In this document: one piece after another, positions 12,909-27,867 of the stretch
Layout: each line of letters begins with the position of its first letter
Position numbering within the stretch: the first letter of the stretch is position 1
Made by a program: the position numbers and the translations under genes
NCBI GenBank assembly: GCA_036488585.1
Contig: DASXHH010000004.1
Span: forward strand, 65,254 to 129,253
DNA from: Candidatus Saccharimonadia bacterium
GTDB taxonomy: Bacteria; Patescibacteriota; Saccharimonadia; UBA4664
Direction: 5' to 3'
DNA length: 64,000 nucleotides
Notes under the pieces: model-generated
Told to the model about the DNA's origin: nothing
The model's database searches: none
What the model saw: the letters and a program-made list of their open reading frames with translations, nothing else

Positions 12909-13691
12909 TCAAACGGTGTGTTGGTCTAGCTCTTGCGCCACCTTCACCATCCTGGCGAAGGACTCGGGGTTGAGACTGGCGGTGCCGGGGAGGAGGCCAT
13001 CGACATAGTCCATCTCGAGGTAGGCTCGAGCGTTCTCGTGGTTGGAGCTGCCGCCATAAAGTAGGCGCACTCCGGCCGAGCCCTCCTCGCCGTAGAGTTC
13101 CTCTAGGGTGTGGCGGATGGCGCGGTAGGCAAATCGAATGTCGTCGGGGGTAGCAGGCTTGGGCACTTTGCCGTCGTGGTGGTTAATGGCCCAAACCGGC
13201 TCGTAGGCTATCACGATGCCTGAGACATCGGCGGCGGTGAGCATGGCGAGGTCGGCAGTGAGCTGGTCGACCACAATCTTCTCGGCCAAACCATGCTGGC
13301 GGTCGTCGAGATTTTCGCCGATGCAAAGAATGGGCGTGAGGCCGTTGCGGACGGCGGCGGCCAGCTTGTTAGCGATGAGCTTATCGGTCTCGCCCATGGC
13401 TCGGCGCTCGGAGTGGCCGACGATCACATAGTTGACGAGCCCTTTGAGCATGCTGGCACTGATTTCGCCGGTGTAGGGACCTTCGTCTAGGTGGTGGAGG
13501 TTCTGGGCACCTAGCTTAAGTTTCTTATGGTCGAGATCCCTAGCTAATGGCGCGAGATCGATGAACGGGGGGCAAATTACCACTTCCACGCCCGGGTGAG
13601 GCTCGATCTTTTGCTCAATGCGCTTAACAAGCACACTGGCCTCGTGTGGGCCCAAATTCATTTTCCAGTTACCGGCAATTAGGCGAGCCAT
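12909..13691 (-). CDS. tpiA: triosephosphate isomerase
   Basis: MARLIAGNWKMN start with AYEPVWAI and GGSxN motifs. Located downstream of pgk. Confidence 0.9.
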   Translation of the reverse strand: MARLIAGNWKMNLGPHEASVLVKRIEQKIEPHPGVEVVICPPFIDLAPLARDLDHKKLKLGAQNLHHLDEGPYTGEISASMLKGLVNYVIVGHSERRAMGETDKLIANKLAAAVRNGLTPILCIGENLDDRQHGLAEKIVVDQLTADLAMLTAADVSGIVIAYEPVWAINHHDGKVPKPATPDDIRFAYRAIRHTLEELYGEEGSAGVRLLYGGSSNHENARAYLEMDYVDGLLPGTASLNPESFARMVKVAQELDQHTV

Positions 13692-13727
13692 AAATCCCTC
13701 TTTTCAGCACAATTATACTACTAACAC

Positions 13728-14930
13728 TTATTTGTCTTGCAGCGCCTCGACACAGGCCAGTCCCTTGCCGCTCATGAGTTCGAGGCTGGCGCCGCCGCCG
13801 GTGGAGACCCAGGTGAATTTGTCGTGCAGGCCCTCCGAGTCTACAAAACTGGCCGTGTCACCACCGCCGATGATGGCGGTAGCGTGGGACTCGATGATGG
13901 CATTCGCCATGGCCATGGAACCGGCTCGGAATTCGGGCACTTCGGTGATGCCGAGCGGCCCGTTCCAAATGACGGTGGCTTGGTCGTCAACGTCTAAGAA
14001 TTGCTCGATTGTATCGAGTAGCGTTTGGCCGTAGGAGTCGGCGGCATCAACGATGTAATCGAGAGGGGCGACGTCCTCGAGATCGACAGTGCGCACGTTT
14101 TTGGGACCTTCCAGGCTTTCGGATACCACGACCTGCTCGGGGATGATCATCTCAGTATTCTCTTTTTTGGCGATGGCTAGAAGTTTTTTCACCGCCGGCT
14201 CCTGGTCACGTTCGGTCACCGATTTGCCGATGTCATGACCGTAAGCCAAAGCGAAGGTGTTGGCGATGGGACCAGTGAGCAGCATGGCGTCGACTTTGGG
14301 GATGAGGTTGGTAAGGATCTCGAGCTTGGTGGAAACTTTGGCGCCGCCAATAACGGCGACGAGCGGGCGCTTGGGATGCTCGATGGCGCCGGAGATATAA
14401 TCGACCTCCTTCTCCACTAGCAGTCCGGCTACACCGGGCAGAATATGGGCCACACCCTCGGTAGAGGCGTGCGGGCGGTAGGAGGCGAAGGCGTCGTACA
14501 CATAGATATCGGCGCCCGAGTCGTGAGCAAGTTGTTTGGCGAAAGTGGGATCGTTCTTCTCCTCCTCGGGATGAAAGCGAACGTTTTCGAGGCAGAGCAG
14601 TTCTCCGGGCTGAAGGTCTTTTACCGCTTGAACGACTTCGGCGCCAACACAATCGCCCACGAATTTCACCGGGCGCTTTAGCACCTCGGCGGCCTTCTTG
14701 GCCACCGGTTCGAGGCTAAATTCGGGTACGGGCTTACCGTCTGGCCGGCCGAGGTGGCTGGTGATAACAATGCGGCAATCGCGCTCCCAGAGGTACTGTA
14801 GCGTGTCACGGGTGGCTTCGATGCGGAAGGAGTCGGTAACTTTGCCGTTTTTGACCGGCACGTTCCAGTCTAAGCGTGCAAAAATGGTTTTTCCCTGAAC
14901 GTCGATATCGCGAATGGTCTTTTTTGTCAT
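13728..14930 (-). CDS. pgk: phosphoglycerate kinase
   Basis: 400 aa with RxDxNVP N-terminus, SHLGRP and GGGA/GGGDT motifs. Confidence 0.9.
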   Translation of the reverse strand: MTKKTIRDIDVQGKTIFARLDWNVPVKNGKVTDSFRIEATRDTLQYLWERDCRIVITSHLGRPDGKPVPEFSLEPVAKKAAEVLKRPVKFVGDCVGAEVVQAVKDLQPGELLCLENVRFHPEEEKNDPTFAKQLAHDSGADIYVYDAFASYRPHASTEGVAHILPGVAGLLVEKEVDYISGAIEHPKRPLVAVIGGAKVSTKLEILTNLIPKVDAMLLTGPIANTFALAYGHDIGKSVTERDQEPAVKKLLAIAKKENTEMIIPEQVVVSESLEGPKNVRTVDLEDVAPLDYIVDAADSYGQTLLDTIEQFLDVDDQATVIWNGPLGITEVPEFRAGSMAMANAIIESHATAIIGGGDTASFVDSEGLHDKFTWVSTGGGASLELMSGKGLACVEALQDK

Positions 14931-15059
14931 ACCTGAAGTTTATATTCGCTGCTATCGCAATGGAAGGACTTCCGAGGGAGGCGCGGGCATGATTCTCGCC
15001 TTTGGTGACTAGGGCATGGCGAGATAGTGGTGCCGGTGATGTATTCGGTTTATTTTGGC

Positions 15060-16208
15060 TCAAGCATTTCGGCGCTTGAGGCCGGCGATGGCCAAGAGTG
15101 TGAACACTACGGTGAACACCGCGAGTATGGTCACATTGAGCCAGACTCGGTCAACTCCCCAGCCGCGCAACATAACATCACGCAGCGCATCTATGCTCCA
15201 CGTAGGCGGGATGAGGTAGCAGAATGGGCGCAGCCAGCCGGGAAGGCTGGCGACCGGTACGAAGATCCCAGATAGCAGGAACACCGGGAAAATAATGAAC
15301 GGAATAAACTGGATAGCCTGGCCCTCGCGCTGAGCAGCAGCCGATACGAGTATGCCGATGGCCTGGGCAGTAACTGCTGTGAGCACGACAAGCAGCGCGG
15401 CGACCCACAGCGGCCCGAGTACCAGGATGTGGTACACCCAGATTGCCACAGCCAGCACCAGAAAGCCCTGGACTGCGGCAATCAGGCCAAATGCTAACTC
15501 GTAGCCCAGTACAACCTCGGCTTCGGTTGCGGGCGACACGCGCAGGCGATTGAGAGTGCCGCTGGTGCGTTCACTGACAAAGGCCAGTAACGTGAGCAAT
15601 GTAGTAAACAGCATGACGGCAAAGGCCATGATTCCGGGTACAAAGTAGTCGATATAACGAGCATCTTTGGCTTTCGAAAAGGCATAACTAAGGTCGAATG
15701 CGATAGGGCTCTTGGCGCCTTGGTCTTGTGCAAGTTTAAGGGTGGCCGAGGCAAGTGATGGTATGACTACGGCTGAGAGTTGCTGATTAGTGGTATCCAA
15801 GTAAACCTGGGCGTGAGCGCCCTTGGGTGGCTGTGGAACGGCTACAGGTTTGCCGGCGACAAGTCTGACGGAGACCGATGGGCTCGACTCGGCGGTGAAA
15901 TCGGGGCCGAAGATCACGGCGCCAACCGCCTTACCGTCCCGAACTTGCTGACGGGCCCAATCAGCGTCGGACGAGGAGGTGAGCTGGAGCGTATCATGAT
16001 CGATCTTATCCACCAGCTTAGTGGCGGACCCGCCCTTATCTTGGTTGACGATGATGACCGGGATGTGCTTGGGTGAATTACCAAAGGCGAAGCCAAAGAT
16101 CAACATAGCCATAACGGGTGCGAACAGCATGAGAGCGAGCGAGCGCCGGTCGTGCTTGAGGGTGAGGAACTGTTTGCGGGCGATGGCCGTGACGTGCGCG
16201 ACTTTCAC
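15060..16208 (-). CDS. ABC-2 type transporter permease
   Basis: 382 aa with an N-terminal TM, a large extracytoplasmic loop and a 5-TM ABC-2 core. Overlaps the upstream ATPase gene by 4 bp. Confidence 0.8.
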   Translation of the reverse strand: MKVAHVTAIARKQFLTLKHDRRSLALMLFAPVMAMLIFGFAFGNSPKHIPVIIVNQDKGGSATKLVDKIDHDTLQLTSSSDADWARQQVRDGKAVGAVIFGPDFTAESSPSVSVRLVAGKPVAVPQPPKGAHAQVYLDTTNQQLSAVVIPSLASATLKLAQDQGAKSPIAFDLSYAFSKAKDARYIDYFVPGIMAFAVMLFTTLLTLLAFVSERTSGTLNRLRVSPATEAEVVLGYELAFGLIAAVQGFLVLAVAIWVYHILVLGPLWVAALLVVLTAVTAQAIGILVSAAAQREGQAIQFIPFIIFPVFLLSGIFVPVASLPGWLRPFCYLIPPTWSIDALRDVMLRGWGVDRVWLNVTILAVFTVVFTLLAIAGLKRRNA

Positions 16209-16951
16209 TTCGCCACCTCCTTTCGACCCGCTAGCTTGAGAAAGGCGTCTTCCAAGGATTTGGTGCCTGTCTTGCGGATAAGTTCGGCTGGCGCGTCTTC
16301 GGCGATGAGCCGACCGTGGTTTACTAGACCGACTCTCTCACAACGCATGGCTTCATCCATATAATGCGTGGTAATGAGGATGGTGGTGCCTTCGGCCTGC
16401 ATACTGCGGAAGCGATCCCAGAAGGTGGCGCGCAGCTCAGGATCGACACCAACAGTGGGCTCGTCCAAAATTAATAGCTTGGGCTTGGGCAAGAGGGCGG
16501 CGGCCAGCGACGCCCGGTGCTGCATGCCTCCTGATAGCTCGGTTATCACCTTGTCGGCCCAGTCGGTGAGATTGACGAATTCCAGTAACTCCTTGATGCG
16601 AGCCTTCAGGTATTTCTTGTCCATGTCGTACAGGCGCCCGAAGAGCTCCAGATTTTCCCGAACGGTCAGGTCAAGGTACAGGGCGGTTTCCTGAGGCATG
16701 TATCCGACGTGTGACCGCACGGCGGGATCGTTTGGCTGTAAGCCCAGCACACTCACCTGACCCCCACCCGCGCTAACCAGGCCCGTCATTACCCGAATAC
16801 TGGTGGTCTTGCCGGCGCCGTTTGGCCCGATCAGACCATATAGTTCGCCTCGTTTGATAGAAAACGTCAGGCCATCCAAGGCCCGAAAGGTTTTGTTGAA
16901 AGTTTTTGTAACGTCCCGGAAAACGACAGCCTGCGAAGCCTCAGGCTCCAT
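16205..16951 (-). CDS. ABC transporter ATP-binding protein
   Basis: Walker A GPNGAGKTT, signature LSGGMQHR, and Walker B LLILDEPT. Confidence 0.85.
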   Translation of the reverse strand: MEPEASQAVVFRDVTKTFNKTFRALDGLTFSIKRGELYGLIGPNGAGKTTSIRVMTGLVSAGGGQVSVLGLQPNDPAVRSHVGYMPQETALYLDLTVRENLELFGRLYDMDKKYLKARIKELLEFVNLTDWADKVITELSGGMQHRASLAAALLPKPKLLILDEPTVGVDPELRATFWDRFRSMQAEGTTILITTHYMDEAMRCERVGLVNHGRLIAEDAPAELIRKTGTKSLEDAFLKLAGRKEVAK

Positions 16952-16972
16952 GCACCCTCCTGCAATTCATTT

Positions 16973-16988
16973 TTCAACGCCTGTTGAA
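16973..16988. promoter_or_regulatory. perfect inverted repeat TTCAAC-N4-GTTGAA in the tetR/ABC divergent intergenic region (candidate TetR operator) next to a TATAAT box
   Basis: Palindrome and TATAAT (16994-16999) read directly from the sequence. It sits between the divergently transcribed TetR gene and the ABC operon. Confidence 0.45.
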
Positions 16989-17016
16989 TTTCTTATCTGA
17001 ACTATAATGTTGGCAC

Positions 17017-17616
17017 ATGAGCGAAGTCAATAGCATAAGCGGTAAGAGTTTAGGACGACGGCCTGGGCCTGGTGACGCCAAGGAGGCAATCGTTGAGGCG
17101 GCCCGGGTACAGTTCGCCAAAAATGGTTACGACCGCACTTCTATGCGCCAGGTAGCGGCGGAGGCATCCGTGGACCCGTCTTTGATAGTCCATTACTTTG
17201 GCACCAAGCAGCGGCTGTTTATAGAGTCGATGTTGCCGCTGTTCGAGGCACCCAAACTTCTGCCAGTTGCATTGGCGGGCGACAAGGGCACAATCGGTCT
17301 GCGCCTGGCGACGCTGTTTATCAAGATGACTTCAGACATGTCGGTACAGAAGTTGATGCTGGGGGTGTTCCGGTCGGTAAGTTCTGAAGAAGAAGCCTCC
17401 AAGATGGCGCGGAATTTTGTGCAGGACGGGATCATGGATCTGGTGGAGCAGTATTTGCCAGGTCCCAACCGAAAGCTGCAAGCCAATATTTTGGGAGGTC
17501 AAATGGTGGGATTATTCGTAGCCAGATACATAATTAAAGTCGAGCCGTTGGTGAGCGCGAGCCCAGACGAGCTGATCGAGTATCTAGCGCCCCGTTTACA
17601 GGCACATTTCGACTAA
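17017..17616 (+). CDS. TetR/AcrR family transcriptional regulator
   Basis: N-terminal HTH (AARVQFAKNGYDRTSMRQVAAEASVDPSLIVHYF) and a C-terminal ligand-binding helical domain. Confidence 0.85.
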   Translation: MSEVNSISGKSLGRRPGPGDAKEAIVEAARVQFAKNGYDRTSMRQVAAEASVDPSLIVHYFGTKQRLFIESMLPLFEAPKLLPVALAGDKGTIGLRLATLFIKMTSDMSVQKLMLGVFRSVSSEEEASKMARNFVQDGIMDLVEQYLPGPNRKLQANILGGQMVGLFVARYIIKVEPLVSASPDELIEYLAPRLQAHFD

Positions 17617-17626
17617 GCTGACGGTT

Positions 17627-19048
17627 TTAATCGACGATTTTAATCTGGACGCGGTCGGTACCGCCGACGAGCCCGGGCTGGTGGCCGGAAGCCAGCACCA
17701 CGGCATCGCCGGGCGTAAGGTTACCGGCGGATTTGAGTTGGCGGATTACACGGTCGGAGGCACCCTTCATGTCGTCCACCAAGAACGACTTGCCGCCCCA
17801 CACGATGGCCATCTGGTAGTAAACGCGCTCGCTGTCGGTGACCATAACAACTGGCATGCTGGGCCGGAGAGCGGCGATGTTGCGGGCGGTCTGTCCGGAG
17901 CTGGTCTCAGCCACAATCACCTTGGCAGGCAACTGGCTGGCCAACACCACGGCGGCAGCGGAGATGGCGTTTTGACGCTCACCACGCTCACCGAACGACA
18001 CCTGGCGGTCTGGCAGCTTGGATAGCTCCTCGCGCTCTGTATAGAGGATGACCCGTTTCATCATCTTAACGGCTTCCACGGGGAACAGGCCCACGGTGGT
18101 TTCTCCGGATAGCATAACGGCGTCGGCGCCTTCGAGTACAGCGGTGGCGACATCCGAGACCTCGGCGCGTGTGGGCTGGGCCGACTGAATCATACTCTCA
18201 AGCATCTGAGTGGCCACGATTACCGGCTTGCGATGATGCTTGCCGAGCTCAATCATGCGGCGCTGGACGGCCGGGACCGACTCGGGCTTGGTTTCGATAG
18301 CCAGGTCGCCGCGAGCCACCATCACCACATCGGTGACGGCAAAGATTTCTTCGAGGTTTTCGACGGCAGAGGCGGTCTCGATCTTGGCAATAATCTTGGC
18401 GTCACTCTTGTGTTTGGCTAGAATCTTGCGCAAGTTGTGGATGTCCTGGGCGGTCTGCACAAACGAGTAGCCGATGTAGTCGACGCCACTCTTGCAGGCG
18501 AACTCGATGTCAGCCAGGTCCTTCTCCGTGAGGATATCGCCACCGAGGTCGGTGTCGGGCAGGTTCATACCCTGATTGGAGTAGACCAACCCTGGAGCGA
18601 GCACCTTGCCGGTGATGAGTTTCTTCTCAATCTTCTCGACCTCAATTTGTACCTGACCGTCGCGCAGGAAAACCCGCTCCCCTTTTTTGAGGTATTTGGA
18701 AACGTCGTGCTGGACCGGAATGACGCCAGTGGCCTCGTAATCGGCGCCATACTCGAAGTGCACCACAGTGTCACGCACAAATGGTAGACCGTCGGGCGGC
18801 AGGGTACCGACGCGGATCTTGGGTCCCTGGATATCGGCTAGCACCGCCATAGGCTTTTCGTGCTTGGCCGACAGCTTGCGCGCCATCTTTAACACCTCGC
18901 CATGCTCCTCGTGGGTACCATGAGCAAAGTTGAGACGGTACATGTTTACGCCGGCAAGTAGCAGCTCCTCCAGAACTTGAGGAGAATTGGTGGCCGGTCC
19001 GATGGTAGCGACGATTTTGGTGCGTTTAAATGATGCGGCAAGCATAAG
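17627..19048 (-). CDS. pyk: pyruvate kinase
   Basis: KIVATIGPA, NFSHG-like NFAHG and MVARGDL motifs. Start chosen at the internal Met (MLAASFKRTKIVATIGP). Confidence 0.85.
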   Translation of the reverse strand, partial: LMLAASFKRTKIVATIGPATNSPQVLEELLLAGVNMYRLNFAHGTHEEHGEVLKMARKLSAKHEKPMAVLADIQGPKIRVGTLPPDGLPFVRDTVVHFEYGADYEATGVIPVQHDVSKYLKKGERVFLRDGQVQIEVEKIEKKLITGKVLAPGLVYSNQGMNLPDTDLGGDILTEKDLADIEFACKSGVDYIGYSFVQTAQDIHNLRKILAKHKSDAKIIAKIETASAVENLEEIFAVTDVVMVARGDLAIETKPESVPAVQRRMIELGKHHRKPVIVATQMLESMIQSAQPTRAEVSDVATAVLEGADAVMLSGETTVGLFPVEAVKMMKRVILYTEREELSKLPDRQVSFGERGERQNAISAAAVVLASQLPAKVIVAETSSGQTARNIAALRPSMPVVMVTDSERVYYQMAIVWGGKSFLVDDMKGASDRVIRQLKSAGNLTPGDAVVLASGHQPGLVGGTDRVQIKIVD

Positions 19049-19149
19049 AGTCTTCCAGATTTTAACAACACTCACCATACTCCAACTCTGCCGCGTACGC
19101 CAGCGTTTTATATCTAGCACTAACAAAACTGACAGTGCTGCAGAAGGCT

Positions 19150-20133
19150 TTAGTGGCTAATGCCTACGTTTATAGACGAAGAGGAGGAGTTGGTGATGTT
19201 GCCGGGCGTAACGGTACCGGACAAGGTGTTGCCATTAATGGTGATGCTGCCCGAGGTGGCCGACTGGGTAGAGTTACTGGTAATGGAGACGCTGGTGCTC
19301 GACGACGAATCCGATGAGAAGCTGCTGGTGCAGCGGACAATGTTGGTGGAGCCGGGACCGGTGTCGGTGATGCTGATGTTGGTCGGGCAGGGACTGGCGC
19401 TGGGTGACGGCGTGGGGCTGGGCGAGCCGCTCGGTGACGGCGTGGGTGACGGGCTGGTGGTAGAGACGGCCGTGAAGGTGTTGCCGGTGAGGCTAGCGGT
19501 GGATGTGAGCTGGGCGAGGGTGGAGCCGGTGGCCAGTGCGACCATTCCCACTGCCAAGACTAATACACCGGCGCGAATGTAGACGCCATCGAGGCGGCGC
19601 AGGCGGCGGATCTGACCGGCAGCTGCGGGCACAGAGCGCAGCAACGCGCGCAGATGCCGCAGCTCGGACAAAATTACCACTAGACCGGGAATAATGATAA
19701 GTAATACGAGCACCGCCGGATTGTGGAACAGGCCGAGCGCGCGGCCGAGCCCGGGCACTACGGTGGCCACGCGACCCACCACCAGACCAGCCGGCACTGG
19801 CTGGTCATTAACCTTATTGGCGTCGCCCTTGGTGGTGACGGTGGGGGTGCCATGTAGCCGGCCGGTGGCCACGATGCGGTGCGTGATGGTGACGCCGTGG
19901 TGGTGCGGGTCTTGGTAGGTCACCACTTGGCCAGGACGCAGGCTAGCAGCCGGCACCCGGTGCACCAGTACCAGCGCGCCCGGTGCGATGGCCGGTTTCA
20001 TGCTGGGCGTGAGTACATTGAGGGCCCGCCAGCCCAGTATGGGCGTGGTGAACATTATCACCAGGGCGCCGCATACCAGGTAGGCGGAGAGGCCAAGCCA
20101 TTTCCAGTTAAGTTGTGAGAGCCGGTGTTTCAT
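19150..20133 (-). CDS. SipW-like (S26B, archaeal/eukaryotic-type) signal peptidase I with C-terminal TM + cognate-motif + S/T/P-rich extension
   Basis: N-terminal TM, catalytic-Ser box LTPSMKP (cf. SGSMEP) and TKGDAN box. Then a second TM and ...TGSTLAQLTSTASLTGNTFTA..., followed by an SPSPTPSP linker and a Cys-containing tail. Confidence 0.75.
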   Translation of the reverse strand: MKHRLSQLNWKWLGLSAYLVCGALVIMFTTPILGWRALNVLTPSMKPAIAPGALVLVHRVPAASLRPGQVVTYQDPHHHGVTITHRIVATGRLHGTPTVTTKGDANKVNDQPVPAGLVVGRVATVVPGLGRALGLFHNPAVLVLLIIIPGLVVILSELRHLRALLRSVPAAAGQIRRLRRLDGVYIRAGVLVLAVGMVALATGSTLAQLTSTASLTGNTFTAVSTTSPSPTPSPSGSPSPTPSPSASPCPTNISITDTGPGSTNIVRCTSSFSSDSSSSTSVSITSNSTQSATSGSITINGNTLSGTVTPGNITNSSSSSINVGISH

Positions 20134-20156
20134 GACCTTCCTCTATTACAATTAGC

Positions 20157-20780
20157 TTACGGTGTTGAACTCGGACTTGGGCTAACGCTGGGACTGATGC
20201 TTGGGCTGGGCGTAACAGTACCGGTGGTGGTGCCGGTGAAGTCGAGGCCGAAGCTGGCATTTGCGACCGTGGCGGTGGATAATGCGCTGCTATCGAGCGT
20301 AACCCAGACATCGTATTCCGTGCCGGAAGTGGACGGCGTGTTGGTGAGAGTGACGCCGCTGCCGGAGCTGAGATCGGCCAAGGAGGCGGAGTTGTCGGTG
20401 TTAGTACCGGTCTTCTCGATGTGGATTATGACCTTAGAGTCATCGAGGTTGGGTGCCGACACGTCAGCGGCGGTCTCGTTGACGGTCACAGTGGCGTCGG
20501 TGGCGTTCTTGAGCCAGAAATGCTGGTGAGCGGCAGATGTTCCGCCCTCAGTGAGCGATCCGAAGTTGAAGCCCTGAGTGCTGGTGACAAAGGTACCGGG
20601 CGTACCGGAGTTGTCGGGCGCGATCAGGATTCCCCCGCTTCCCACCGAAAAAGTGTTGCCGGTGAGCGACGCAGTGCCAACCGTCGCGGCAAAAGTGGCG
20701 CCGATGACCATGGCGCTGGTGCCGCCGATAATGGCCAGGCTGCGCGCTATTTCTAGTGAACGTTTACTTAAATGTGATTT
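20157..20780 (-). CDS. TasA/camelysin-like secreted protein with SipW-cognate class signal peptide (copy 1)
   Basis: N-terminus ...IARSLAIIGGTSAMVIGATFAATVGTASLTGNTFSVGSG matches the TasA-type pattern (LVGGGTWAAFND...ATFASG). Beta-rich body and PS-rich C-terminal tail. SD GGGGGTG 8 nt upstream. Confidence 0.6.
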   Translation of the reverse strand, partial: KSHLSKRSLEIARSLAIIGGTSAMVIGATFAATVGTASLTGNTFSVGSGGILIAPDNSGTPGTFVTSTQGFNFGSLTEGGTSAAHQHFWLKNATDATVTVNETAADVSAPNLDDSKVIIHIEKTGTNTDNSASLADLSSGSGVTLTNTPSTSGTEYDVWVTLDSSALSTATVANASFGLDFTGTTTGTVTPSPSISPSVSPSPSSTP

Positions 20781-20940
20781 CATTCATACACCCCCTTACG
20801 CTTGAGTAAAATCAACATAAGGTATCTTCGTCCGGCGGACCGGACCGAGCCACGTGCATAGTTCCGAAAGTGGACAGCTCGCTCCACCGGTGGAGACAAA
20901 AGCAGCTTGGCAAGCTCGGCTAATGGCGGCCTGCAGGCGC

Positions 20941-21954
20941 TTACTGAATTGTAGTCGTGGTCGTGTTCGAATTAGTGGCGTCGCCGCTCGACGCGCCGTT
21001 ATCGGAATTGTTAGGGGTGGTAACGTCGCCGGTGGTGGCCTGTTGGTTGGACTGGTTTACGACGGTGACGTTGGTTGAATTGTTAATGCTTACGTGGGAG
21101 TGACTATTCGAATTTACGTACGCCACACACTGGCCCTGATTCTTGAATCGCGGCGAGCCGTCGGGGTCCTTAAACTGCTGCCAGCCCCCATTTTTGCAAT
21201 CGTCAGCCGAAGTGGGCGCCGCCAGGACGGTAATAATGCCCTGTGATTTGACCGAATTGGTGGTAGTGAGAGCGTAGGTATAACCAACCGGTAGGACTGC
21301 CACGAGTATCAGCAGGGCCAAGGTACGGGGACCCATGCCATCCAAGCGGCGGGTGGAGCGGCGAGTCGGCTGGGTTTCGGTAGGCGCGAGTGTGGGCGGG
21401 CCGGCCGGAGGCTCCTGGTCAGGAGGGTCGGATTTGGATCCAGACAGGCCGGTAGGTTTGCGGGCAAGCGACCGGCGCAGCGTTTGGATTTCGCCCCAGA
21501 TCACGAGTAGGCCCGGAATAATGATGAGAGCCAGCAGTCCGAGCGGGCTGTGCAAAATGTTGGCCAATTTCCCAACCATGGGCAGGTGCAGAACCTCTCG
21601 CCCGACGATCCGGCCACCGGCAAATGGCAGATCCGCCACCGAGTTGGCGTCGCCCTTGGTGACCACCATGGGCAGGCCGTCCTTCACCGGCAGCGCCACC
21701 ACACGGTGAGTAATGGTTTGCTGCGGGTGGACGGGATCGGTGTAGGTGACGACATCGCCAGGATGTATATCGCGCAATGGCACGCGATGAATAATTACGA
21801 GGTCGCCCGGCTGAATCCCCGGCCTCATGCTGCCGGTTAGCACATCGAGGGCTTTCCAGCCGCCAATTGGCAACACTGAAGCTACTATCACAACCGCACA
21901 GGCGGCGTAAACGAGCAGGGCGAGCCATTTGGCGATGGAGGCAGCAGATTTCAT
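20941..21954 (-). CDS. SipW-like signal peptidase I, paralog 2, with long C-terminal extension
   Basis: LDVLTGSMRPGIQPGDLVI and TKGDANSV boxes, paralogous to 19150-20133. Followed by a second TM, a Pro-rich linker, a third TM and an Asn/Thr/Ser-rich tail with 2 Cys. Confidence 0.75.
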   Translation of the reverse strand: MKSAASIAKWLALLVYAACAVVIVASVLPIGGWKALDVLTGSMRPGIQPGDLVIIHRVPLRDIHPGDVVTYTDPVHPQQTITHRVVALPVKDGLPMVVTKGDANSVADLPFAGGRIVGREVLHLPMVGKLANILHSPLGLLALIIIPGLLVIWGEIQTLRRSLARKPTGLSGSKSDPPDQEPPAGPPTLAPTETQPTRRSTRRLDGMGPRTLALLILVAVLPVGYTYALTTTNSVKSQGIITVLAAPTSADDCKNGGWQQFKDPDGSPRFKNQGQCVAYVNSNSHSHVSINNSTNVTVVNQSNQQATTGDVTTPNNSDNGASSGDATNSNTTTTTIQ

Positions 21955-21978
21955 TGCGGGCGACCTAAGAGTTATTGA

Positions 21979-22536
21979 TTAGTGGCTAACGGTACCATCG
22001 CTAGTGCCGGTGAGTTGAAGCGTGAAGTCGTTCAGCGCGTTAAGCACGGGCGTAGAGGCATCGGCGGTAACCCAGGCCTCGAGGTCATTAGAAGTACTAC
22101 CGGTGTTAGCGAGGGCTCCCAGACCGGCGAGGCTCGAGTCGGAGCTGCCGCCGAGGGCGCTAAACGGAATGCTTACTGTATTACCATTAAGCATGAAGTT
22201 CATGGTTAGATGAGACTCTTCTGCACTCACGTTGGTGTTCCATGTGGTGATTTTGGCCGATAGTTTGACGCTATTGGCCGGCTCGGTTGTCTCCAAGTAA
22301 ATGTGAGTGTGGGCAACCGATGGGCTACCCGGTGCAGTACTGAATACAAAACCACTGGCGGAAGGGCCGTAGTTTACATGGTCGCTGGAAATCGACAGGT
22401 TATCGGAAACGGCTACTGCACCGGTGGCCGTCACCGCGTTGGTAGTGGTGGCTGCGAATGTAGCCCCGACGATTAGGGCGCTAGTGCCGCCAATGACAGC
22501 CACGGCGCGCGCGATTGCAAACGTTCGTACGTTCAT
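21979..22536 (-). CDS. TasA/camelysin-like secreted protein with SipW-cognate class signal peptide (copy 2)
   Basis: Start at MNVRTFAIARAVAVIGGTSALIVGATFAAT..., nearly identical in its signal region to copy 1. SD GTGAGGT upstream. The 81-codon track extension upstream of that Met looks non-coding. Confidence 0.6.
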   Translation of the reverse strand: MNVRTFAIARAVAVIGGTSALIVGATFAATTTNAVTATGAVAVSDNLSISSDHVNYGPSASGFVFSTAPGSPSVAHTHIYLETTEPANSVKLSAKITTWNTNVSAEESHLTMNFMLNGNTVSIPFSALGGSSDSSLAGLGALANTGSTSNDLEAWVTADASTPVLNALNDFTLQLTGTSDGTVSH

Positions 22537-22639
22537 AGAAACCTCACAGTTTAATGCTGTTACCATGGTAAATCGCATTAGGGATTGGCACAATAATGTT
22601 TTTACTAAGCCAAAAGTTAAGAATTTGTTAAGAACGAAT

Positions 22640-23245
22640 GAGGCGTTAAAAATGAAACCGTCCGGCTGCACGAATGGCAACCGGACGAGGGGTGGCGCGA
22701 AGCCACGATGTGGTAGAACCACGGGGTCCGAGAGTTTTCTCGGGCACTTGGACCCCGTGGATTTTGTGAACCGAAGCATTCCTTGTCACTCTGCATCGGC
22801 GCCCCTAGTGTGGGGCTAGTTTATCACGCGCCATCAGTGAATCACCCGTGTTGATCCAAAGATGGTCCTCATGCTTCTGCATGGCATGAGGCTCTCGAGG
22901 AATAATATCCTGGAGGCGTGGTCCTGCTGGCCTTCCGAGACCTTGTTCCGGGTTCCATGACAAGCTGGAACGATCCGGGGTCTTGGCAGCAGGCGGCGCG
23001 AACCTTATCGGTAATCGCTGGCGCAACGGGAGGCACTTTCGCAGCGTCTGTCTAACTTCGCAGTACAGACTCGTCGCGAACTTCACGACGATTGCGATCC
23101 CGTGTGCCGGTGCAAGCGGTCGGATTTGATGGCTATGCGCCTCGCACCGATCGCTGAGGTCCCGGATATTTCCGTGGTGTGGGCCAATGATGGGCCCCGC
23201 GGATAGGTGGCCGGGTACCTCGACTATAAATCCGCCCCTAACTAA
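22640..23245 (-). ncRNA. candidate structured non-coding RNA (possible rnpB/RNase P RNA plus 3' hairpins), ending at an intrinsic terminator
   Basis: ~600 bp with no credible ORF and multiple perfect hairpins. On the minus strand GGAAAUAUCCGGGACCUC (23156-23173) resembles the RNase P P4 5' strand GGAAAGUCCGGGCUCC. GGAACCCGGAAC (22946-22958) resembles the P4 3' strand ACAGAACCCGGCUUA. A GAAAGUGCC motif is also present. The 3' end is the hairpin GUCCGG...CCGGAC followed by UUUCAUUUUU (22645-22672). Confidence 0.3.
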
Positions 23246-23295
23246 GAAGCGAACGCGCATATGTTAACACAGTGAATAACTTATGTCAACCCTTT

Positions 23296-23920: not shown

Positions 23921-23996
23921 GGCCCCATCGTCTAGAGGTCTAGGACAGCGGGTTTTCAGTCCGTCAACCGGGGTTCGAATCCCCGTGGGGTCACCA
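23921..23996 (+). tRNA. tRNA-Glu (anticodon UUC)
   Basis: 76 nt. Acceptor GGCCCCA/UGGGGUC + A + CCA. D-arm UCGUCUAGAGGUCUAGGAC resembles E. coli tRNA-Glu. Anticodon stem GCGGG/UCCGU with loop UUUUCAG (UUC at 34-36, U33, A37). T-arm CGGGGUUCGAAUCCCCG. Confidence 0.85.
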
Positions 23997-24030
23997 TAAG
24001 CATTTATCAATGTCATTGTAATTATCGTTT

Positions 24031-24073
24031 GAGCTCGCCCGAATCAAGCTTGTGCGCTTGTCTCGGGCGAGCT
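24031..24073. terminator. perfect 12-bp inverted repeat hairpin (GAGCTCGCCCGA ... TCGGGCGAGCTC) between tRNA-Glu and the convergent small gene
   Basis: Seen directly. No clear U-tract on either side, so a terminator function is uncertain. Confidence 0.35.
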
Positions 24074-24117
24074 CTAGAGTGGCGCTGTATGAGCTTGGAG
24101 ACGCTGCTCCGGCCACA

Positions 24118-24420
24118 CTACTGTTCCACGGAACCCCGTACCGCCGGGGCCTCATTGGAATCGGCGGCGTAGCCACCAAATCCTTCATAAGGGTCCACGA
24201 CCAGCTTGGTGAGGGGCATACCGCCTGGTTTCCATGCCGGGGCGGGCACCTCAATTCCAAGTACCTCCCGCACAGAGCGGCGGCCTGCTTCTTCGGCCGC
24301 GACCGTCTCGGGATCATCTGAGTCGAAAATGCCTTCGTGCGGGTTGACCACCAATTCGGAGAGAGGCATTGCACCTTCATCTCGGGACGGCTCGCCGTGA
24401 GTATTCGTCAACTGAATCAT
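24118..24420 (-). CDS. small hypothetical protein with internal duplicated motif
   Basis: 100 aa with two copies of MPL[ST][EK]LVV[ND]P[HY]EG[IF]. Coding status is uncertain. Confidence 0.35.
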   Translation of the reverse strand: MIQLTNTHGEPSRDEGAMPLSELVVNPHEGIFDSDDPETVAAEEAGRRSVREVLGIEVPAPAWKPGGMPLTKLVVDPYEGFGGYAADSNEAPAVRGSVEQ

Positions 24421-24524
24421 CTCCCTTGCTCGCTTGTGTCGCCCACTTATTTAACGATGTTTTTCAAGATAGCACCAGAGGTGCCAGCGTATTACCTCAT
24501 CGTGGATAAGGTTCCAATTCGACT

Positions 24525-25112
24525 CTACCTCAGGAACTTATAGTTGAGGTAAACGAAACTGCTACTGCCTTTACCGTGGACCTGAACTCCCTCATCAAAT
24601 TTTTGTAAGCCAACTAGCTTTAGTTTTTGTTGTACCCCTTCCGGTAGCCAATAATTACCGCTCCCAACGATAATGGGCGCAATAAACTGATGCAGCTCAT
24701 CTACTAAACCGGCCCTTATGGCCTCCGCAGCTAAGTGAGGACCGCCAATACCAATATTCATATCGGATTTTGATTTTATACGACTAATTTCTTCAGCATT
24801 GAATTCGTGCTCAATTTCAGTGTTCTTTGTAGCGGGATTGGATAACGAGGAAGAATAGACGATTTTCTTCGCCGCTCGCCAAATCTTGCCATACTCGTTT
24901 GCAGCTGAGCTTGGCCCGTCTTCTGGCCAGGTTTCCCAAGCTGCCAAGGTTTCATACATATGGCGCCCGAGCAAAAGAATACCTGTGTCTCGCTCTATGT
25001 TATTGATGAATGCATGAACCTCTTCAGTTGGTGCCGCCCATTCGAAATTACCTTCTTTATCGGCTACATATCCGTCTAATGACGTCAGCATTAAATAAGT
25101 AAGTTTTGCCAT
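24525..25112 (-). CDS. dihydrofolate reductase family protein (RibD C-terminal-domain type)
   Basis: MAKLTYLMLTSLDGYVADKEGNFEW... and ...GGPHLAAEAIRAGLVDELHQFIAPIIVGSG, typical of YwjB/YyaP-like DHFR-fold proteins. Lower-GC gene. Confidence 0.75.
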   Translation of the reverse strand: MAKLTYLMLTSLDGYVADKEGNFEWAAPTEEVHAFINNIERDTGILLLGRHMYETLAAWETWPEDGPSSAANEYGKIWRAAKKIVYSSSLSNPATKNTEIEHEFNAEEISRIKSKSDMNIGIGGPHLAAEAIRAGLVDELHQFIAPIIVGSGNYWLPEGVQQKLKLVGLQKFDEGVQVHGKGSSSFVYLNYKFLR

Positions 25113-25119
25113 AATAGTA

Positions 25120-25761
25120 TTAGAGCCTACGCGTTTTCTTCACAAAATATCGAAGGAAAGTAGGCCCCCAAGAAGTCTCTTCGGCTGAAAATTCAATGGG
25201 CGTAAAGCCTGACTTATTGAGCTTCAATTCAAGCTCGTCCTCTTGATAATCTGAGAAGTGCCTGTCGGGCCAGTTGTTCGAAACATTAGGCCGCAGGTCG
25301 TCAAAATCCCCTTTCATTACTGATATAAATGCGACGCCTCCTGCCCTAAGAACTCTATGAAAACCCTCAAGAGTCGTATCGGCATCGGCCTTAGGGATAT
25401 GTAGAAAAGAAGCATTTACCCATAGACCGTCAAAAGATTCATCGGGAAGGTCGAGGTTGCGCATATCGGCAACAAAAAACTTCCCAGAAGGACATGCACG
25501 CCTGGCGACTTCAATAAACTCCTCCGTAATGTCTGTGCCCGTTACATTGAAGCCATGATCTAACAGATATTTTGACTCCCGGCCAGTCGCACAGCCAATG
25601 TCCAATACATCTTTACCGGGCATTATCTCAATAAATCGGTCGAGCAATTGCTGGATCTCAGAACGAAGCTTGGTGTTCTGATCGGCATACTCAGCATGTA
25701 TTTGACTGTACGTTTTCTGGGTCTGTGCAATATGAGAATTTGGATCTTCCTGTTCGGCCAT
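25120..25761 (-). CDS. class I SAM-dependent methyltransferase
   Basis: Motif I VLDIGCATGRES and post-I DGLWVNASFLHIP. Lower-GC gene. Confidence 0.8.
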   Translation of the reverse strand: MAEQEDPNSHIAQTQKTYSQIHAEYADQNTKLRSEIQQLLDRFIEIMPGKDVLDIGCATGRESKYLLDHGFNVTGTDITEEFIEVARRACPSGKFFVADMRNLDLPDESFDGLWVNASFLHIPKADADTTLEGFHRVLRAGGVAFISVMKGDFDDLRPNVSNNWPDRHFSDYQEDELELKLNKSGFTPIEFSAEETSWGPTFLRYFVKKTRRL

Positions 25762-25798
25762 AGAATAAGCATATCTCCACCATGATTCTAATGCATTT

Positions 25799-26410
25799 TT
25801 ACTCGGAACTAGGCGAATGTTTTCGATACGGCTTGCGAAAACGTATTGACGGTAGCAGCACTAAAGCCGCAATCAGCGAGTCAGTTAGCAGCACATAGAA
25901 ACCGTAGGCTGAGTTTGATACGGACCACATCTTGATTGTCAGCAGCGTGGTCAAGGCAGCGAGTGCTCCCCACAAAAACGGGAAACCGCTCTCAGACTCT
26001 GGTTCTAGGTATGATTTTTTGATGGTGGGCACGGCTGCAAAGAAGTCGGCAACAATACTTAGTACTAAAGCTACAAATCCCCTTCCGGTTAATGCCCACA
26101 GGACAAGTGCAAGCAGCGAAACAGACCCGCAGAGAATGTCAAAAGTTGTCAGCTTCCAGAAAGCCTTCCTGTTCACAAAGGATGCGATGAGTACAAGTAA
26201 CGGCCCGAAGCCAATGGAGAATGTAAGTAGACTTTGCAAGCCAACATGCTGGCTAAGTTGAGCGAAGAAGCCAATCATTGGTGCAACCGCCCACAAGGCC
26301 CAAGTAACACGGTTAGGGCGATTTCGGCCCTTTAGCGTGTCATAGGCGTACTGAGCGGCACTCGCCACAGTGATTAACCCTGATAGTATTACGAACTTAT
26401 CGCTTAGCAT
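25799..26410 (-). CDS. hypothetical polytopic membrane protein
   Basis: 203 aa with ~6 predicted TM helices and no recognisable motif. Confidence 0.5.
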   Translation of the reverse strand: MLSDKFVILSGLITVASAAQYAYDTLKGRNRPNRVTWALWAVAPMIGFFAQLSQHVGLQSLLTFSIGFGPLLVLIASFVNRKAFWKLTTFDILCGSVSLLALVLWALTGRGFVALVLSIVADFFAAVPTIKKSYLEPESESGFPFLWGALAALTTLLTIKMWSVSNSAYGFYVLLTDSLIAALVLLPSIRFRKPYRKHSPSSE

Positions 26411-26451
26411 ACGATTACTATGTTACCAAACTTCTCTGCTAAAATATCCGC

Positions 26452-27012
26452 ATGGCAAACGCAATTATTCTGCATGGGCAGCCGACTAAAAAACACTACT
26501 TTGACCCAGCATTTCCGGCTAGCAGCAATTACTACTGGATACCCTGGTTGCAAAAGCAACTTATTGTTCGCGATATACCCACGGCGACACCTGACGTGCC
26601 AAATAACTGGAAGCCAGAACTAGCTGTCTGGCGTAAAGAATTCGAGCGGTACGACATTAACGAGCAGACATTGCTGGTTGGTCATAGTTGCGGGGGCGGT
26701 TTCTTAGTTCGATGGCTCAGCGAACACCAAGAAATTAAACCTGCAAAAGTCGTGCTACTAGCCCCATGGTTAAACCCTAAGAAGCTCGAAGAAACGTGGG
26801 ACTTCTTTGAATTTAATATTGATAAAAGCCTAACTGAACGTACTAATGTGACGGTCGTCTATTCTGATGATGATATGCCCCAGATACTCGACACAGTTTC
26901 ATTACTGAAACAAGTACTGCCAGAAGCTTCATTTAAAGAGCTTCATGGTCGCCGACATTTCTACGATGACGAGTGCATGGAGATCCCCGAAGTTCTGGAA
27001 CTATTAGTCTGA
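26452..27012 (+). CDS. alpha/beta-fold serine hydrolase (RBBP9/YdeN-like)
   Basis: 186 aa with LVGHSCGG nucleophile elbow (GxSxG). The size and N-terminal ILHGQP are typical of the YdeN/RBBP9 family. Confidence 0.65.
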   Translation: MANAIILHGQPTKKHYFDPAFPASSNYYWIPWLQKQLIVRDIPTATPDVPNNWKPELAVWRKEFERYDINEQTLLVGHSCGGGFLVRWLSEHQEIKPAKVVLLAPWLNPKKLEETWDFFEFNIDKSLTERTNVTVVYSDDDMPQILDTVSLLKQVLPEASFKELHGRRHFYDDECMEIPEVLELLV

Positions 27013-27116
27013 GTTTCGACCAATAGCTCCAGAGATCTTGACCCTGCTCTTTTCTGGATACCGTTATACTCCCCTGGCGTGTATACTGTGCATGCTTCAT
27101 CCACAGAGAAGAAGGC

Positions 27117-27347
27117 GTGGTTATGGAAGAGCGGCCTAGTACATCCGATAACCGTGAGTTCAACCTCAAAACAGACGGGGGCATATGCCTAATCTTCGGC
27201 CTTGTGGTGACCATCTTTGCGGTGGGGCCATGGCCGTTGCCGTGGTGCATAGGCCTTGGAGCGGGGGCAGCTGTATTGGTGACCGTCGGCGCCGCACTGC
27301 TCCGGGCTGCACGACGTATTCGCAAGCGGCAGTACTACGGGGGCTAA
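27117..27347 (+). CDS. small hypothetical membrane protein
   Basis: 76 aa with two TM segments. Followed by a strong terminator. Confidence 0.4.
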   Translation: MVMEERPSTSDNREFNLKTDGGICLIFGLVVTIFAVGPWPLPWCIGLGAGAAVLVTVGAALLRAARRIRKRQYYGG

Positions 27348-27402
27348 ACTACTGCTGCCGGTCGTCGAACAACCCCGCACTCTCCTCCAACTGAGCAGAA
27401 GG

Positions 27403-27440
27403 CTCCGGGCACACAACAAGTGCCCGGAGCTAATTTGATT
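27403..27440 (+). terminator. rho-independent terminator (CTCCGGGCAC-acaaca-GTGCCCGGAG + T-rich tail)
   Basis: Perfect 10-bp stem followed by ctaatttgattt. Confidence 0.6.
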
Positions 27441-27489
27441 TAAAGGGCCAATACTGGATATGCTGATAACGAAACTGGAGCAAGCTGTT

Positions 27490-27867
27490 ATGCAAAAGAT
27501 TTTAATGATAGAAGATGACCCGTTAGTGGGTCGGCTGTACAAGCGCGTGTTTGAGCTCGAAGGCTTTACGATCGAGTGGGCCGAGAACGGCCAGGACGGG
27601 TTGGATAAGGTAAAGACGATGGGGCCGGATATCATTTTGCTGGACGTGATGATGAAAGGCTTGAACGGGCTCGAGGTGCTGACGCGGCTGAAAGACGAGC
27701 CGAAGACGGCCGGCATTCCGGTGCTAGTACTCACCAACGTGTCGGATGCTCGCATAACGCAGCTCGCGACCGAGAAGGGTGCGGTGGCGGCCATGGTGAA
27801 GAGCGAGACTGAGCCGGAAGGCGTGGTCGGGATGATAAAAGGAATTCTGGCAAAGGCCGGAAAATAG
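27490..27867 (+). CDS. single-domain response regulator (CheY-like receiver)
   Basis: KILMIEDD...ILLDVMMKGLNG...LVLTNVSD...MVKSE shows the receiver-domain Asp/Thr/Lys pattern. No output domain. Confidence 0.8.
   Translation: MQKILMIEDDPLVGRLYKRVFELEGFTIEWAENGQDGLDKVKTMGPDIILLDVMMKGLNGLEVLTRLKDEPKTAGIPVLVLTNVSDARITQLATEKGAVAAMVKSETEPEGVVGMIKGILAKAGK

Follow-up and report, generated by a model that had tools for sequence, protein, structure and literature searches.

Two Diverged Subunit and Signal Peptidase Modules of a Candidate TasA-Type Fiber System in a Saccharimonadia Genome

Four consecutive genes in a soil Saccharimonadia genome (candidate phyla radiation), the products of which are at present annotated no further than "hypothetical protein" and "signal peptidase I", were found to form two pairs of a small secreted protein and a SipW-like signal peptidase. 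On balance, we favor the reading that the two pairs are diverged and probably orthogonal modules, of two genes each, for a TasA-superfamily extracellular fiber, with a TapA-like initiator or anchor joined to each SipW-type peptidase. The locus is most informative in the C-terminal tails of the peptidases, where an internal signal-like segment is followed by a copy of the putative N-terminal strand of the adjacent subunit. The whole stretch of DNA that was analyzed, 64,000 nucleotides in length, is called the window.

Gene content and catalytic domains

The four genes are located on the minus strand directly upstream of pyk, and their open reading frames were confirmed in the order given by the first-pass annotation, a small secreted protein followed by a signal peptidase, twice.

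smallA, 21979-22536, minus strand: 185 aa, secreted subunit of module A
pepA, 20941-21954, minus strand: 337 aa, S26B (SipW-like) signal peptidase of module A with a fused tail
Spacer between modules A and B, 20784-20940, minus strand: 157 nt
smallB, 20157-20783, minus strand: 208 aa, secreted subunit of module B
pepB, 19150-20133, minus strand: 327 aa, S26B (SipW-like) signal peptidase of module B with a fused tail
pyk, 17627-19078/19126: follows the four genes

The subunit and peptidase genes are separated by 23-24 nt within each module, and no terminator-like site was found on the minus strand of the spacer between the modules. A longer reading frame of 266 aa for smallA, with the start extended to 22779, is not credible because the orthologues are 181-185 aa in length and a terminator-like hairpin lies within the extension; the frame of 185 aa is called by NCBI and Logan. 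The structured region upstream is neither tmRNA nor RNase P, as determined with ARAGORN and Rfam.

The proposed duplication of the module is borne out by the paralogy of both gene types. smallA and smallB are 34% identical (E 3e-11), and pepA and pepB are 36% identical (E 4e-50). A recent duplication was ruled out by these identities of just 34-36%, and it is also contradicted by four related loci (L009, L008, L012, and L015), in which A-type and B-type orthologues are likewise arranged in tandem and in this order.

Both peptidases exceed the TIGR02228 cutoff of 51.85 bits (76.3 bits for pepB and 93.8 bits for pepA), in agreement with their earlier assignment as SipW-like S26B enzymes, and the Ser boxes (PSMKP and GSMRP) and the GDAN box were found as described. 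SipW-type catalysis uses a Ser and a His, rather than a Lys, together with the conserved Asp of the GDxN box. The corresponding residues are S42, H83, and D102 in pepA and S44, H85, and D104 in pepB, and in an alignment of 23 homologues S44, H85, and D104 are invariant, as are K102, G103, and N106. The equivalog model for the Bacillus SipW (NF046067) failed with scores of 55.6 and 64.5 bits against a cutoff of 190, and by these scores pepA and pepB are members of the family and not orthologues of SipW. Hydropathy places TM1 at residues 15-33 of pepB and 10-28 of pepA, and TM2 at residues 140-158 and 138-156, respectively. The N-terminal anchor and a C-terminal TM segment thus flank the catalytic domain, and a third TM segment is extra to the usual layout of the family. 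In the AlphaFold2 model of pepB the catalytic domain has pLDDT values of 80-96, with helices at 2-29, 139-167, and 172-210, and the tail is below 50.

Secreted subunits and their relation to TasA

The predicted features of the two small proteins are listed below; the cleavage site in smallA was set by alignment to A27|A28 of TasA.

smallA predicted signal peptide, aa 1-28, nt 22453-22536, minus strand: cleavage after T-F-A28
smallA mature N-terminus with putative donor strand ATTTNAVTATGAVAV, nt 22405-22452, minus strand
smallB predicted signal peptide, aa 1-32, nt 20688-20783, minus strand
smallB mature N-terminus with putative donor strand ATVGTASLTGNTFSV, nt 20643-20687, minus strand

In smallB, ATVGTASLTGNTFSV is followed by a predicted β-sandwich body and a short PS-rich C-terminus. 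The nearly identical N-termini reported earlier were found in part: both proteins contain IAR..A.IGGTSA...GATFAAT, but NTFS.G is present only in smallB, and smallA has TGAVAVS at this position.

The TasA-like identity of the small proteins holds, from the profile comparisons, as remote homology only. No direct match was obtained: smallA and smallB did not match PF12389 (checked to E<=1) or, in their N-termini, TIGR04088 (checked to E<=10; cutoff 19 bits), the window proteins did not match the BsaA model (TIGR04090), and both were below the reach of the TasA equivalog models. Searches of Pfam and NCBIfam with the whole small proteins and with the N-terminal 60 residues gave nothing useful. The link is made through the family of subunits of ~190 aa to which smallA belongs (E 1.8e-50), and for which a profile search gave 352 cluster representatives. 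At E<=0.1, TIGR04088 was matched by 25 of 149 family members (best 3.9e-5), PF12389 by nine, TIGR04089 by eight, and TIGR04090 by two. Two relatives pass the PF12389 cutoff of 22.5, P0163 with 39.4 bits and P0116 with 25.4 bits, and the profile of the window family reaches them at E 8e-11 and 7e-13, respectively. An hhalign comparison with B. subtilis TasA, the sequence of which was verified against 8aur (chain starting at residue 28), gave a probability of 65% (E 6e-5) and covers the signal peptide, the first strand, and the first sandwich strands; most of the similarity behind the links to PF12389 and TasA lies in the N-terminal third, signal peptide included. Against PDB sequences the family profile found nothing significant, the best match being a surface-anchored protein (E 0.027). 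PF12389 homologues in Patescibacteria have been mentioned in passing (PMC9245690). The first-pass annotation depended on a link of the small proteins to TasA, camelysin, or SipW-cognate models and of the peptidases to S26B; the first was found remotely through the family, and the second directly with TIGR02228.

The Pfam name of PF12389 is "Camelysin metallo-endopeptidase", and the relatives that pass this model would make the small proteins candidates for camelysin-type (Peptidase_M73) secreted metalloproteases. This assignment is extremely improbable. The window proteins themselves do not match the model, only H88, D114, and E123 are even nearly invariant in an 11-sequence alignment, and the conserved positions in the 149-sequence alignment are limited to R, T, A, L, and G. 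A metalloprotease role was rejected because His, Glu, and Asp are never invariant, and the structurally characterized members of the PF12389 family are filament subunits (PMC9674648). Sortase pilins and type IV pilins were also rejected, as the sequences contain neither an LPXTG motif nor a prepilin G|F/M...E motif.

Peptidase tails and strand pairing

The first-pass annotation described a second TM segment and a long tail in each peptidase, which is correct but incomplete. pepA and pepB each have three TM-like segments by hydropathy, and neither the internal signal-like segment nor the strand copy that follows it had been noticed.

pepA internal signal-like segment RRLDGM...VGYTYA228, nt 21271-21351, minus strand
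pepA strand copy LTTTNSVKSQGIITVLAA, nt 21217-21270, minus strand: matches smallA with a score of 34 (non-cognate mean 11)
pepA predicted extracellular tail, aa 247-337, minus strand
pepB internal signal-like segment RRLRRLDG...TGSTLA207, nt 19513-19608, minus strand
pepB strand copy QLTSTASLTGNTFTAV, nt 19465-19512, minus strand: TASLTGNTF identical to smallB
pepB S/T/P/N-rich tail, nt 19153-19464, minus strand: contains a C-x19-C motif and an N-x-Q-x-A-T-S-G module

The loop between TM2 and TM3 is rich in K and R (seven in 24 aa for pepB and nine in 49 aa for pepA). Each tail then presents, in order, an internal segment resembling a SipW-type signal, a copy of the cognate subunit strand, and a stretch rich in S/T/P/N. 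TIGR04088 is the recurrent NCBIfam match, found in 6 of the 11 tail segments tested but in every case below threshold (11-15 bits); the pepB segment scored 14.8 bits against the cutoff of 19. No Pfam or NCBIfam domain was found in the tails, and the Ig domain of TapA is absent. In the AlphaFold2 model of full-length pepB the tail is unresolved and the tail strand is docked nowhere. The fusion of peptidase and tail is not an artifact of gene calling, as more than 20 independent clusters contain the uninterrupted reading frame.

A search for related loci seeded with alignment A1 gave one genome locus and eight metagenome loci. The subunit gene adjoins the peptidase gene in the window (twice), in L003 (twice), in L004, L009, L010, L013, L014, L016, L018, and L020, and on the P0004 and P0025 contigs; this adjacency holds in nearly all relatives with enough flanking sequence. 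There is no adjacent peptidase gene in L019, a distant family member. In L018 the counterparts of the signal, strand, and PT-linker are found on a gene of their own, immediately after a short SipW-like gene.

The tail strands were compared with the subunit strands using BLOSUM62. Against its own subunit a tail strand scores 34-45, with 7-9 of 16 residues identical, and the non-cognate means are 8-19. In a permutation test of the pairing the observed sum was reached in only 1 of 720 arrangements, and L016 and L020 provide two more pairs with the same cognate match. In 11 pairs from relatives the strand copy is specific to its own pair; because cross-scores among the four B-like strand types are as high as cognate scores, the covariation is backed by only about four independent strand types. 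By these alignments the tail strand appears to be a pair-specific sequence mimic of the strand of the cognate subunit.

Such covariation would also be expected if a single peptidase cuts both proteins. The small proteins could then be non-polymerizing, monomeric β-sandwiches that are secreted or surface-bound (adhesins or envelope proteins), with the conserved segment serving as a recognition element for the peptidase and the tail copy as a pseudo-substrate or a site of autoprocessing, evolving together with the specificity of the enzyme. We consider this unlikely. S26 signal peptidases read a few residues on either side of the scissile bond, and the conserved pair-specific stretch of ~15 residues counts against a mere recognition element because it is far longer. 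It is also predicted to be β (strands at 37-40 and 43-47 of the subunit), and it aligns with the intercalated strand of TasA, D31-S41 (PMC10151520). The subunits match no filament family directly, and the structural matches to the monomer model are modest and include some non-filament β-sandwiches, but the top ones are enriched for donor-strand filament subunits, with FimA pilins first in Foldseek (E 5e-5).

The composition of the tails (54-74% S/T/P/N/G) and their lack of a recognizable fold are what would be seen if the tail were a relic of gene fusion, permanently membrane-anchored as a probably glycosylated S/T/P/N-rich surface stalk with no role in assembly, and if its strand resembled that of the subunit through shared descent from SipW substrates. 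In other lineages LTD, dockerin-like repeats, or β-rich domains with no Pfam match are fused after the same kind of signal, and the C-terminal tail module also occurs as TM-anchored stand-alone copies; a Pfam search of the tail modules and of one stand-alone protein (P0203) gave no family. These fusions and stand-alone copies fit a stalk as well. However, the strand copy tracks the strand of the cognate subunit across at least four independent kinds of strand, which argues for continued selection for the match and not for shared ancestry alone, and the T-x-A site is kept in every tail. A role confined to a surface stalk is, in our estimate, a little less probable still than monomeric subunits.

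Proposed assembly and comparison with known systems

For the fiber reading, the following sequence of events is proposed. A preprotein of ~190 aa would be exported via Sec and cut after T-x-A by the neighboring S26B (SipW-type, Ser/His/Asp) peptidase, at the position of A27|A28 of B. subtilis TasA. Cleavage would free an N-terminal strand of ~15 residues (ATVGTASLTGNTFSV in module B and ATTTNAVTATGAVAV in module A), and the mature β-sandwich subunits would polymerize by donor-strand exchange, with the strand of one subunit inserted into the next. The peptidase would be a three-TM protein with an N-terminal anchor, the catalytic domain, TM2, and a basic cytoplasmic loop, and its third hydrophobic segment would act as an internal SipW-type signal peptide with the same T-x-A site. 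The cognate strand copy directly after this site, at the start of an extracellular S/T/P/N-rich tail, may fill the acceptor groove of the first subunit, whether cut free by the peptidase or left tethered to the membrane. It would start the fiber, anchor it to the cell, or both, the role of TapA for TasA in Bacillus and of TafC in the haloarchaeal tafi.

More tentatively, and with somewhat less than even confidence, we suggest that the peptidase itself is the fiber primer and membrane anchor. A single three-TM polypeptide would process the subunit and offer its own cognate donor strand behind a possibly self-cleaved internal signal, such that two genes make a complete orthogonal system, and the window genome would keep two of them with non-interchangeable strands. 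The two systems may possibly serve in the attachment of an ultrasmall epibiotic bacterium to hosts or surfaces.

TasA-type donor-strand fibers are an emerging matrix and pilus system common to bacteria and archaea, and work is still under way to learn how they are initiated and attached when no chaperone-usher machine is involved (TapA in Bacillus and TafC in tafi). An initiator strand on the peptidase's own tail would, if true, be more compact than any solution described to date, and pair-specific strand matching would constitute a directly testable specificity code. Surface appendages matter in Saccharibacteria and the candidate phyla radiation because these cells live attached to hosts. To our knowledge, type IV pili are the appendages characterized so far in these bacteria, and the locus predicts a second, uncharacterized fiber class. 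A literature search found no published account of such a fiber system in Saccharibacteria. The two-gene module could also serve as a minimal scaffold for engineered extracellular fibers.

No sequence similarity to the window subunits was detectable for the CanX/CanA cannulae, Hyper2 (DUF1102), the AbpA bundling pili, or the Saci_0406 threads, and the CanX and AbpA loci, unlike the window, have no dedicated peptidase. In the BsaA-SipW system of Clostridium perfringens (TIGR04090 family) the SipW-dependent subunit gene also adjoins sipW, and the BsaA model is the one matched by two family members but not by the window proteins. BsaA polymers are reported to contain intermolecular isopeptide bonds (PMC11580942).

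For the haloarchaeal tafi (TafA subunit, TafD, and TafC) the comparison is limited to the available part of the report (PMC11821415). A dedicated S26-type peptidase is likewise needed there for subunit processing; this peptidase, TafD, has four TM segments and a second extracellular domain, similar to the extra segments and tail found here, and the initiator TafC is the proposed supplier of the first donor strand. In contrast, tafi is an archaeal system of 5-7 genes, TafC is a separate protein, no tail strand copy is mentioned for TafD in that part of the report, and the tafi subunits use Tat, whereas there is no R-R pair in the n-regions of smallA and smallB.

The Bacillus tapA-sipW-tasA operon also places a gene for a dedicated archaeal/ER-type signal peptidase beside the substrate gene, but, as the first-pass annotation recognized, the gene order differs, with subunit then peptidase in the window, and the module is present twice. 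The window subunits share with B. subtilis TasA the G-x-T-aromatic-A|A end of the signal peptide (GGGTWA|AFND in TasA) and a predicted β-sandwich with a putative N-terminal strand, but they are ~190 aa rather than 261 aa in length, and the peptidases, at 56-65 bits against the NF046067 cutoff of 190, differ from the Bacillus SipW. TapA is located at the beginning of the filament and donates the strand at its N-terminus (PMC10151520). At the sequence level, the window tails are similar to TapA as accessory elements with a strand copy behind a SipW-type signal-like segment; unlike TapA, they have no Ig domain, and the TapA-like strand is found not on a separate protein but on the C-terminus of the peptidase, behind the third TM segment.

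Tandem Subunit-Peptidase Modules

The window lies within a 152.9-kb contig from a soil metagenome-assembled genome, which is named Candidatus Saccharimonadia bacterium at NCBI and belongs to the Patescibacteria (candidate phyla radiation). Five consecutive minus-strand genes make up the locus.

Genes of the locus (window positions)
21979-22536, minus: smallA, small secreted subunit of module A, 185 aa
20941-21954, minus: pepA, signal peptidase of module A, 337 aa
20157-20783, minus: smallB, small secreted subunit of module B, 208 aa
19150-20133, minus: pepB, signal peptidase of module B, 327 aa
19078/19126 down to 17627, minus: pyruvate kinase, pyk (PF00224, E 1.6e-98)

The intergenic gap is 23-24 nt inside each pair and 157 nt between the pairs. 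A 266-aa open reading frame for smallA is not credible, since a length of 181-185 aa was assigned by other gene callers and is seen in every orthologue; the extension also contains a terminator-like hairpin, which argues against the longer start as well.

The two tandem modules described in the first-pass annotation were recovered, with 34% identity between smallA and smallB (E 3e-11) and 36% identity between pepA and pepB (E 4e-50). By these comparisons, the duplication of the subunit-peptidase module is genuine and old. The quoted signal-region motifs were found, except that NTFS.G is limited to smallB. The A and B paralogue types each have their own orthologues in other assemblies (61-82% identity), and the order of A pair followed by B pair is repeated in four related loci (L009, L008, L012, and L015). 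In a fifth, L003, the two pairs are separated by 6 kb. A single pair is present in several relatives, two of which likewise have it directly upstream of pyk. The subunit family also has a distant member (P0109; L019 5001-5585, on an 897-kb contig) next to which no signal peptidase gene lies, and the adjacency of subunit and peptidase is therefore not universal.

At least three genomes have the putative fibre module immediately ahead of pyk, with no functional link apparent. The conserved surroundings (window 12900-20133 and the contigs of P0004 and P0025) consist of the fibre module, pyk, a variable insert, pgk, tpi, and a uvrD-like helicase gene; the insert is a TetR gene with an ABC transporter in the window, and the P0004 contig has a SpoU methylase there. 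The sole tRNA of the window is a tRNA-Glu (anticodon TTC) at 23921-23996 on the plus strand. The G+C content is 0.46-0.51 at 24001-28000, 38001-42000, and 56001-60000 versus 0.56-0.62 elsewhere, and these three stretches, which also show locally reversed GC skew, may be acquired islands.

A candidate structured RNA, about 610 nt long, is located just upstream of smallA (22650-23262, minus), in a region where no gene was called. It is flanked on one side by a strong promoter-like site (TTGACA-17-TAACAT with TG, 23289-23261) and on the other by a terminator-like hairpin with a T-run (22688-22658); a 151-aa open reading frame at 22805-23260 is probably spurious. The minimum free energy is -266.5 kcal/mol versus -213.9 ± 8.1 for shuffled sequences (z -6.5). 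The region is 76% identical at the DNA level to its counterpart in L009, with no consistent reading frame, and the consensus fold of the two sequences has 149 pairs, of which 11 are changed on both sides and none is broken. Rfam gave no match to this region at E ≤ 0.1, and no tmRNA was found in it. The region could encode a large non-coding RNA of a new kind, or it could serve as a long leader for the module A operon.

Subunits and Catalytic Domains

The small proteins had been likened to TasA and camelysin. Neither smallA nor smallB, nor their N-terminal 60 residues, matched any Pfam or NCBIfam model, PF12389 (TasA/camelysin) and TIGR04088 (SipW-cognate signal) included, and the likeness was recovered only through the wider family. 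With a profile built from the 11 closest sequences, 352 cluster representatives (length about 190 aa) were retrieved from a library of 1.84 billion proteins. At E ≤ 0.1, TIGR04088 matched 25 of 149 family members, PF12389 matched 9, TIGR04089 matched 8, the TasA equivalog matched 3, and the BsaA family matched 2; the relatives P0163 and P0116 exceed the PF12389 threshold. An hhalign alignment of the family profile to Bacillus subtilis TasA (probability 65%, E 6e-5) has 66 columns and runs from the signal peptide through the first strand into the opening strands of the sandwich. The TasA query agreed with PDB 8aur, whose chain starts at residue 28, and the alignment predicts cleavage at T-F-A32|A33 in smallB and T-F-A28|A29 in smallA. 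No PDB sequence was found with the family profile. Chaperone-usher pilins are scattered among the structural matches of the subunit, and Foldseek ranks FimA pilins first. It is unlikely that the small proteins are camelysin-type proteases. From the profile comparisons, the subunits are remote relatives that fall below the curated PF12389 and TIGR04088 thresholds.

The assignment of the peptidases as SipW-like held for the enzyme class. With TIGR02228 (archaeal/ER-type signal peptidase I; cutoff 51.85), pepB scored 76.3 bits and pepA 93.8 bits, and both fell short of the Bacillus SipW equivalog (56-65 bits versus a cutoff of 190). By these scores, they are members of TIGR02228 yet not SipW orthologues. 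Residues S44, H85, D104, K102, G103, and N106 (pepB numbering) are invariant in 23 aligned homologues, and a Ser/His/Asp signature is characteristic of SipW-type enzymes. AF2 models the catalytic domain with confidence (pLDDT 80-96).

The Peptidase Tail and Its Strand Copy

Both peptidases contain three hydrophobic segments, a feature not remarked in the first-pass annotation. The loop between the second and third segments contains 7 Lys/Arg in 24 aa (pepB) or 9 in 49 aa (pepA), which under the positive-inside rule would place the loop in the cytoplasm and the tail, the part following the third segment (TM3), outside the cell. In pepB, the tail covers aa 208-327. TM3 ends in a subunit-like T-x-A motif (pepB, GSTLA|Q; pepA, GYTYA|L), and right behind it is a copy of the mature N-terminal strand of the cognate subunit: QLTSTASLTGNTFTAV in pepB versus ATVGTASLTGNTFSV in smallB, and LTTTNSVKSQGIITV in pepA versus ATTTNAVTATGAVAV in smallA. 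The same layout is present in all Saccharimonadia homologues of 290-345 aa: a basic linker with R-x-L-D-G, TM3, G-x-T-[FL]-A|[QA]-L-T-S-x-x-S-L-T-G-N-x-F, a P/S/T linker, a Cys-bracketed N-T-G-P-G-S motif, and an N-x-Q-x-A-T-S-G module. The recurrent NCBIfam match was TIGR04088, in 6 of 11 tail segments at 11-15 bits, below the cutoff of 19.

Nine subunit-peptidase pairs were compared over the 16 residues after each site using BLOSUM62. Cognate scores were 34-45 (7-9 identities) versus non-cognate means of 8-19, and two extra pairs, L016 and L020, are consistent with cognate matching. With one representative per strand type, the true pairing alone of 720 permutations reached the observed sum, a signal that rests on only about four independent types since the B-like strand types resemble one another. 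Modules A and B are probably orthogonal because their strands differ. The matching could also be accommodated if the small proteins were non-polymerizing surface proteins and the shared segment merely a recognition element for the peptidase; in the reading proposed here, the copy would instead serve as a donor strand.

The motif R-x-L-D-G-[MV] is conserved just ahead of the internal signal-like segment (LDGMG at aa 204-208 of pepA; LDGMRR in P0175, P0177, P0181, L003, L004, L013, and L020). Its Met may be a start codon left over from a once-separate downstream gene, or an internal start for the tail alone. In L018, the gene behind a PF12389-passing subunit is an ordinary SipW-like one of 193 aa, and after it comes a separate open reading frame that starts with a SipW-type signal, a strand copy (LFSDTATSSGNTFTAAS), and a PT linker; this arrangement appears to be the ancestral, unfused one. 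The peptidases of other lineages continue behind TM3, a SipW-type site, and a strand with different extracellular domains, among them a lamin-tail domain (PF00932 in P0198, E 9e-15), a set of dockerin-like repeats, and additional beta-rich domains that match nothing in Pfam.

SipW-like peptidase fusions in other lineages
Loci: L014, L016, L018
Proteins: P0183, P0189, P0191, P0198, P0204, P0217

Various domains are fused behind the same kind of signal, and the fusion of a peptidase with a substrate thus seems to be more widespread. Such fusions would also suit a tail that is only a surface stalk left from fusion, a reading under which the cognate strand copy would have no priming role.

An S/T/N-rich C-terminal module, C..N[IV]SITNTGPGS.N...C followed by S[VI]..TN.S.Q.ATSG...N.T..G, matches no Pfam family. 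The peptidase tails have it in common with small free-standing proteins, TM- or signal-anchored, that are encoded close to the modules in relatives; within the window it is confined to the two peptidases.

Occurrences of the S/T/N-rich module
Window 19153-19401, minus: pepB aa 245-327
Window, minus: pepA aa ~290-337
Relatives: L003 12952-13417; L010 7514-7994; L013 1862-2354; P0203

A two-Cys motif specific to A-type tails, C-K-N-G-G-W-x-x-F...F-K-N-Q-G-Q-C-[VI] (pepA aa ~250-275, window ~21130-21205), is also found in the peptidase tails of L004, L013, and P0181 and has no family match.

Proposed Assembly and Related Systems

We propose that the small subunit would be exported by Sec and cleaved by the adjacent peptidase, that cleavage would expose the N-terminal strand, and that the subunits would then polymerize by a donor-strand mechanism, with the peptidase tail supplying the first strand and possibly also a membrane anchor. 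Subunit cleavage, tail export, polymerization, and priming are all predicted here from sequence-level facts. A literature search of limited scope found neither a paper on systems of this kind in Saccharibacteria nor a description of a peptidase with a fused donor strand; PF12389 homologues in Patescibacteria are mentioned in one sentence of PMC9245690.

Archaeal filament proteins and TasA have been placed in one superfamily (10.1101/2024.12.30.630787). The Bacillus initiator TapA is located at the start of the TasA filament, and its N-terminal 14 residues suffice for biofilm formation (PMC10151520). A TapA 44-62 peptide has been used in a polymerization test. A tail strand acting as the first donor would mirror TapA, and the system may work like the tapA-sipW-tasA operon, although the TapA-like element of the window lacks the domain of TapA and is fused to the peptidase. 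The tail would likewise mirror TafC, the initiator of the haloarchaeal tafi (PMC11821415), and the tafi peptidase TafD has a second extracellular domain of unknown function and extra TM segments, the latter being found in the peptidases of the window too.
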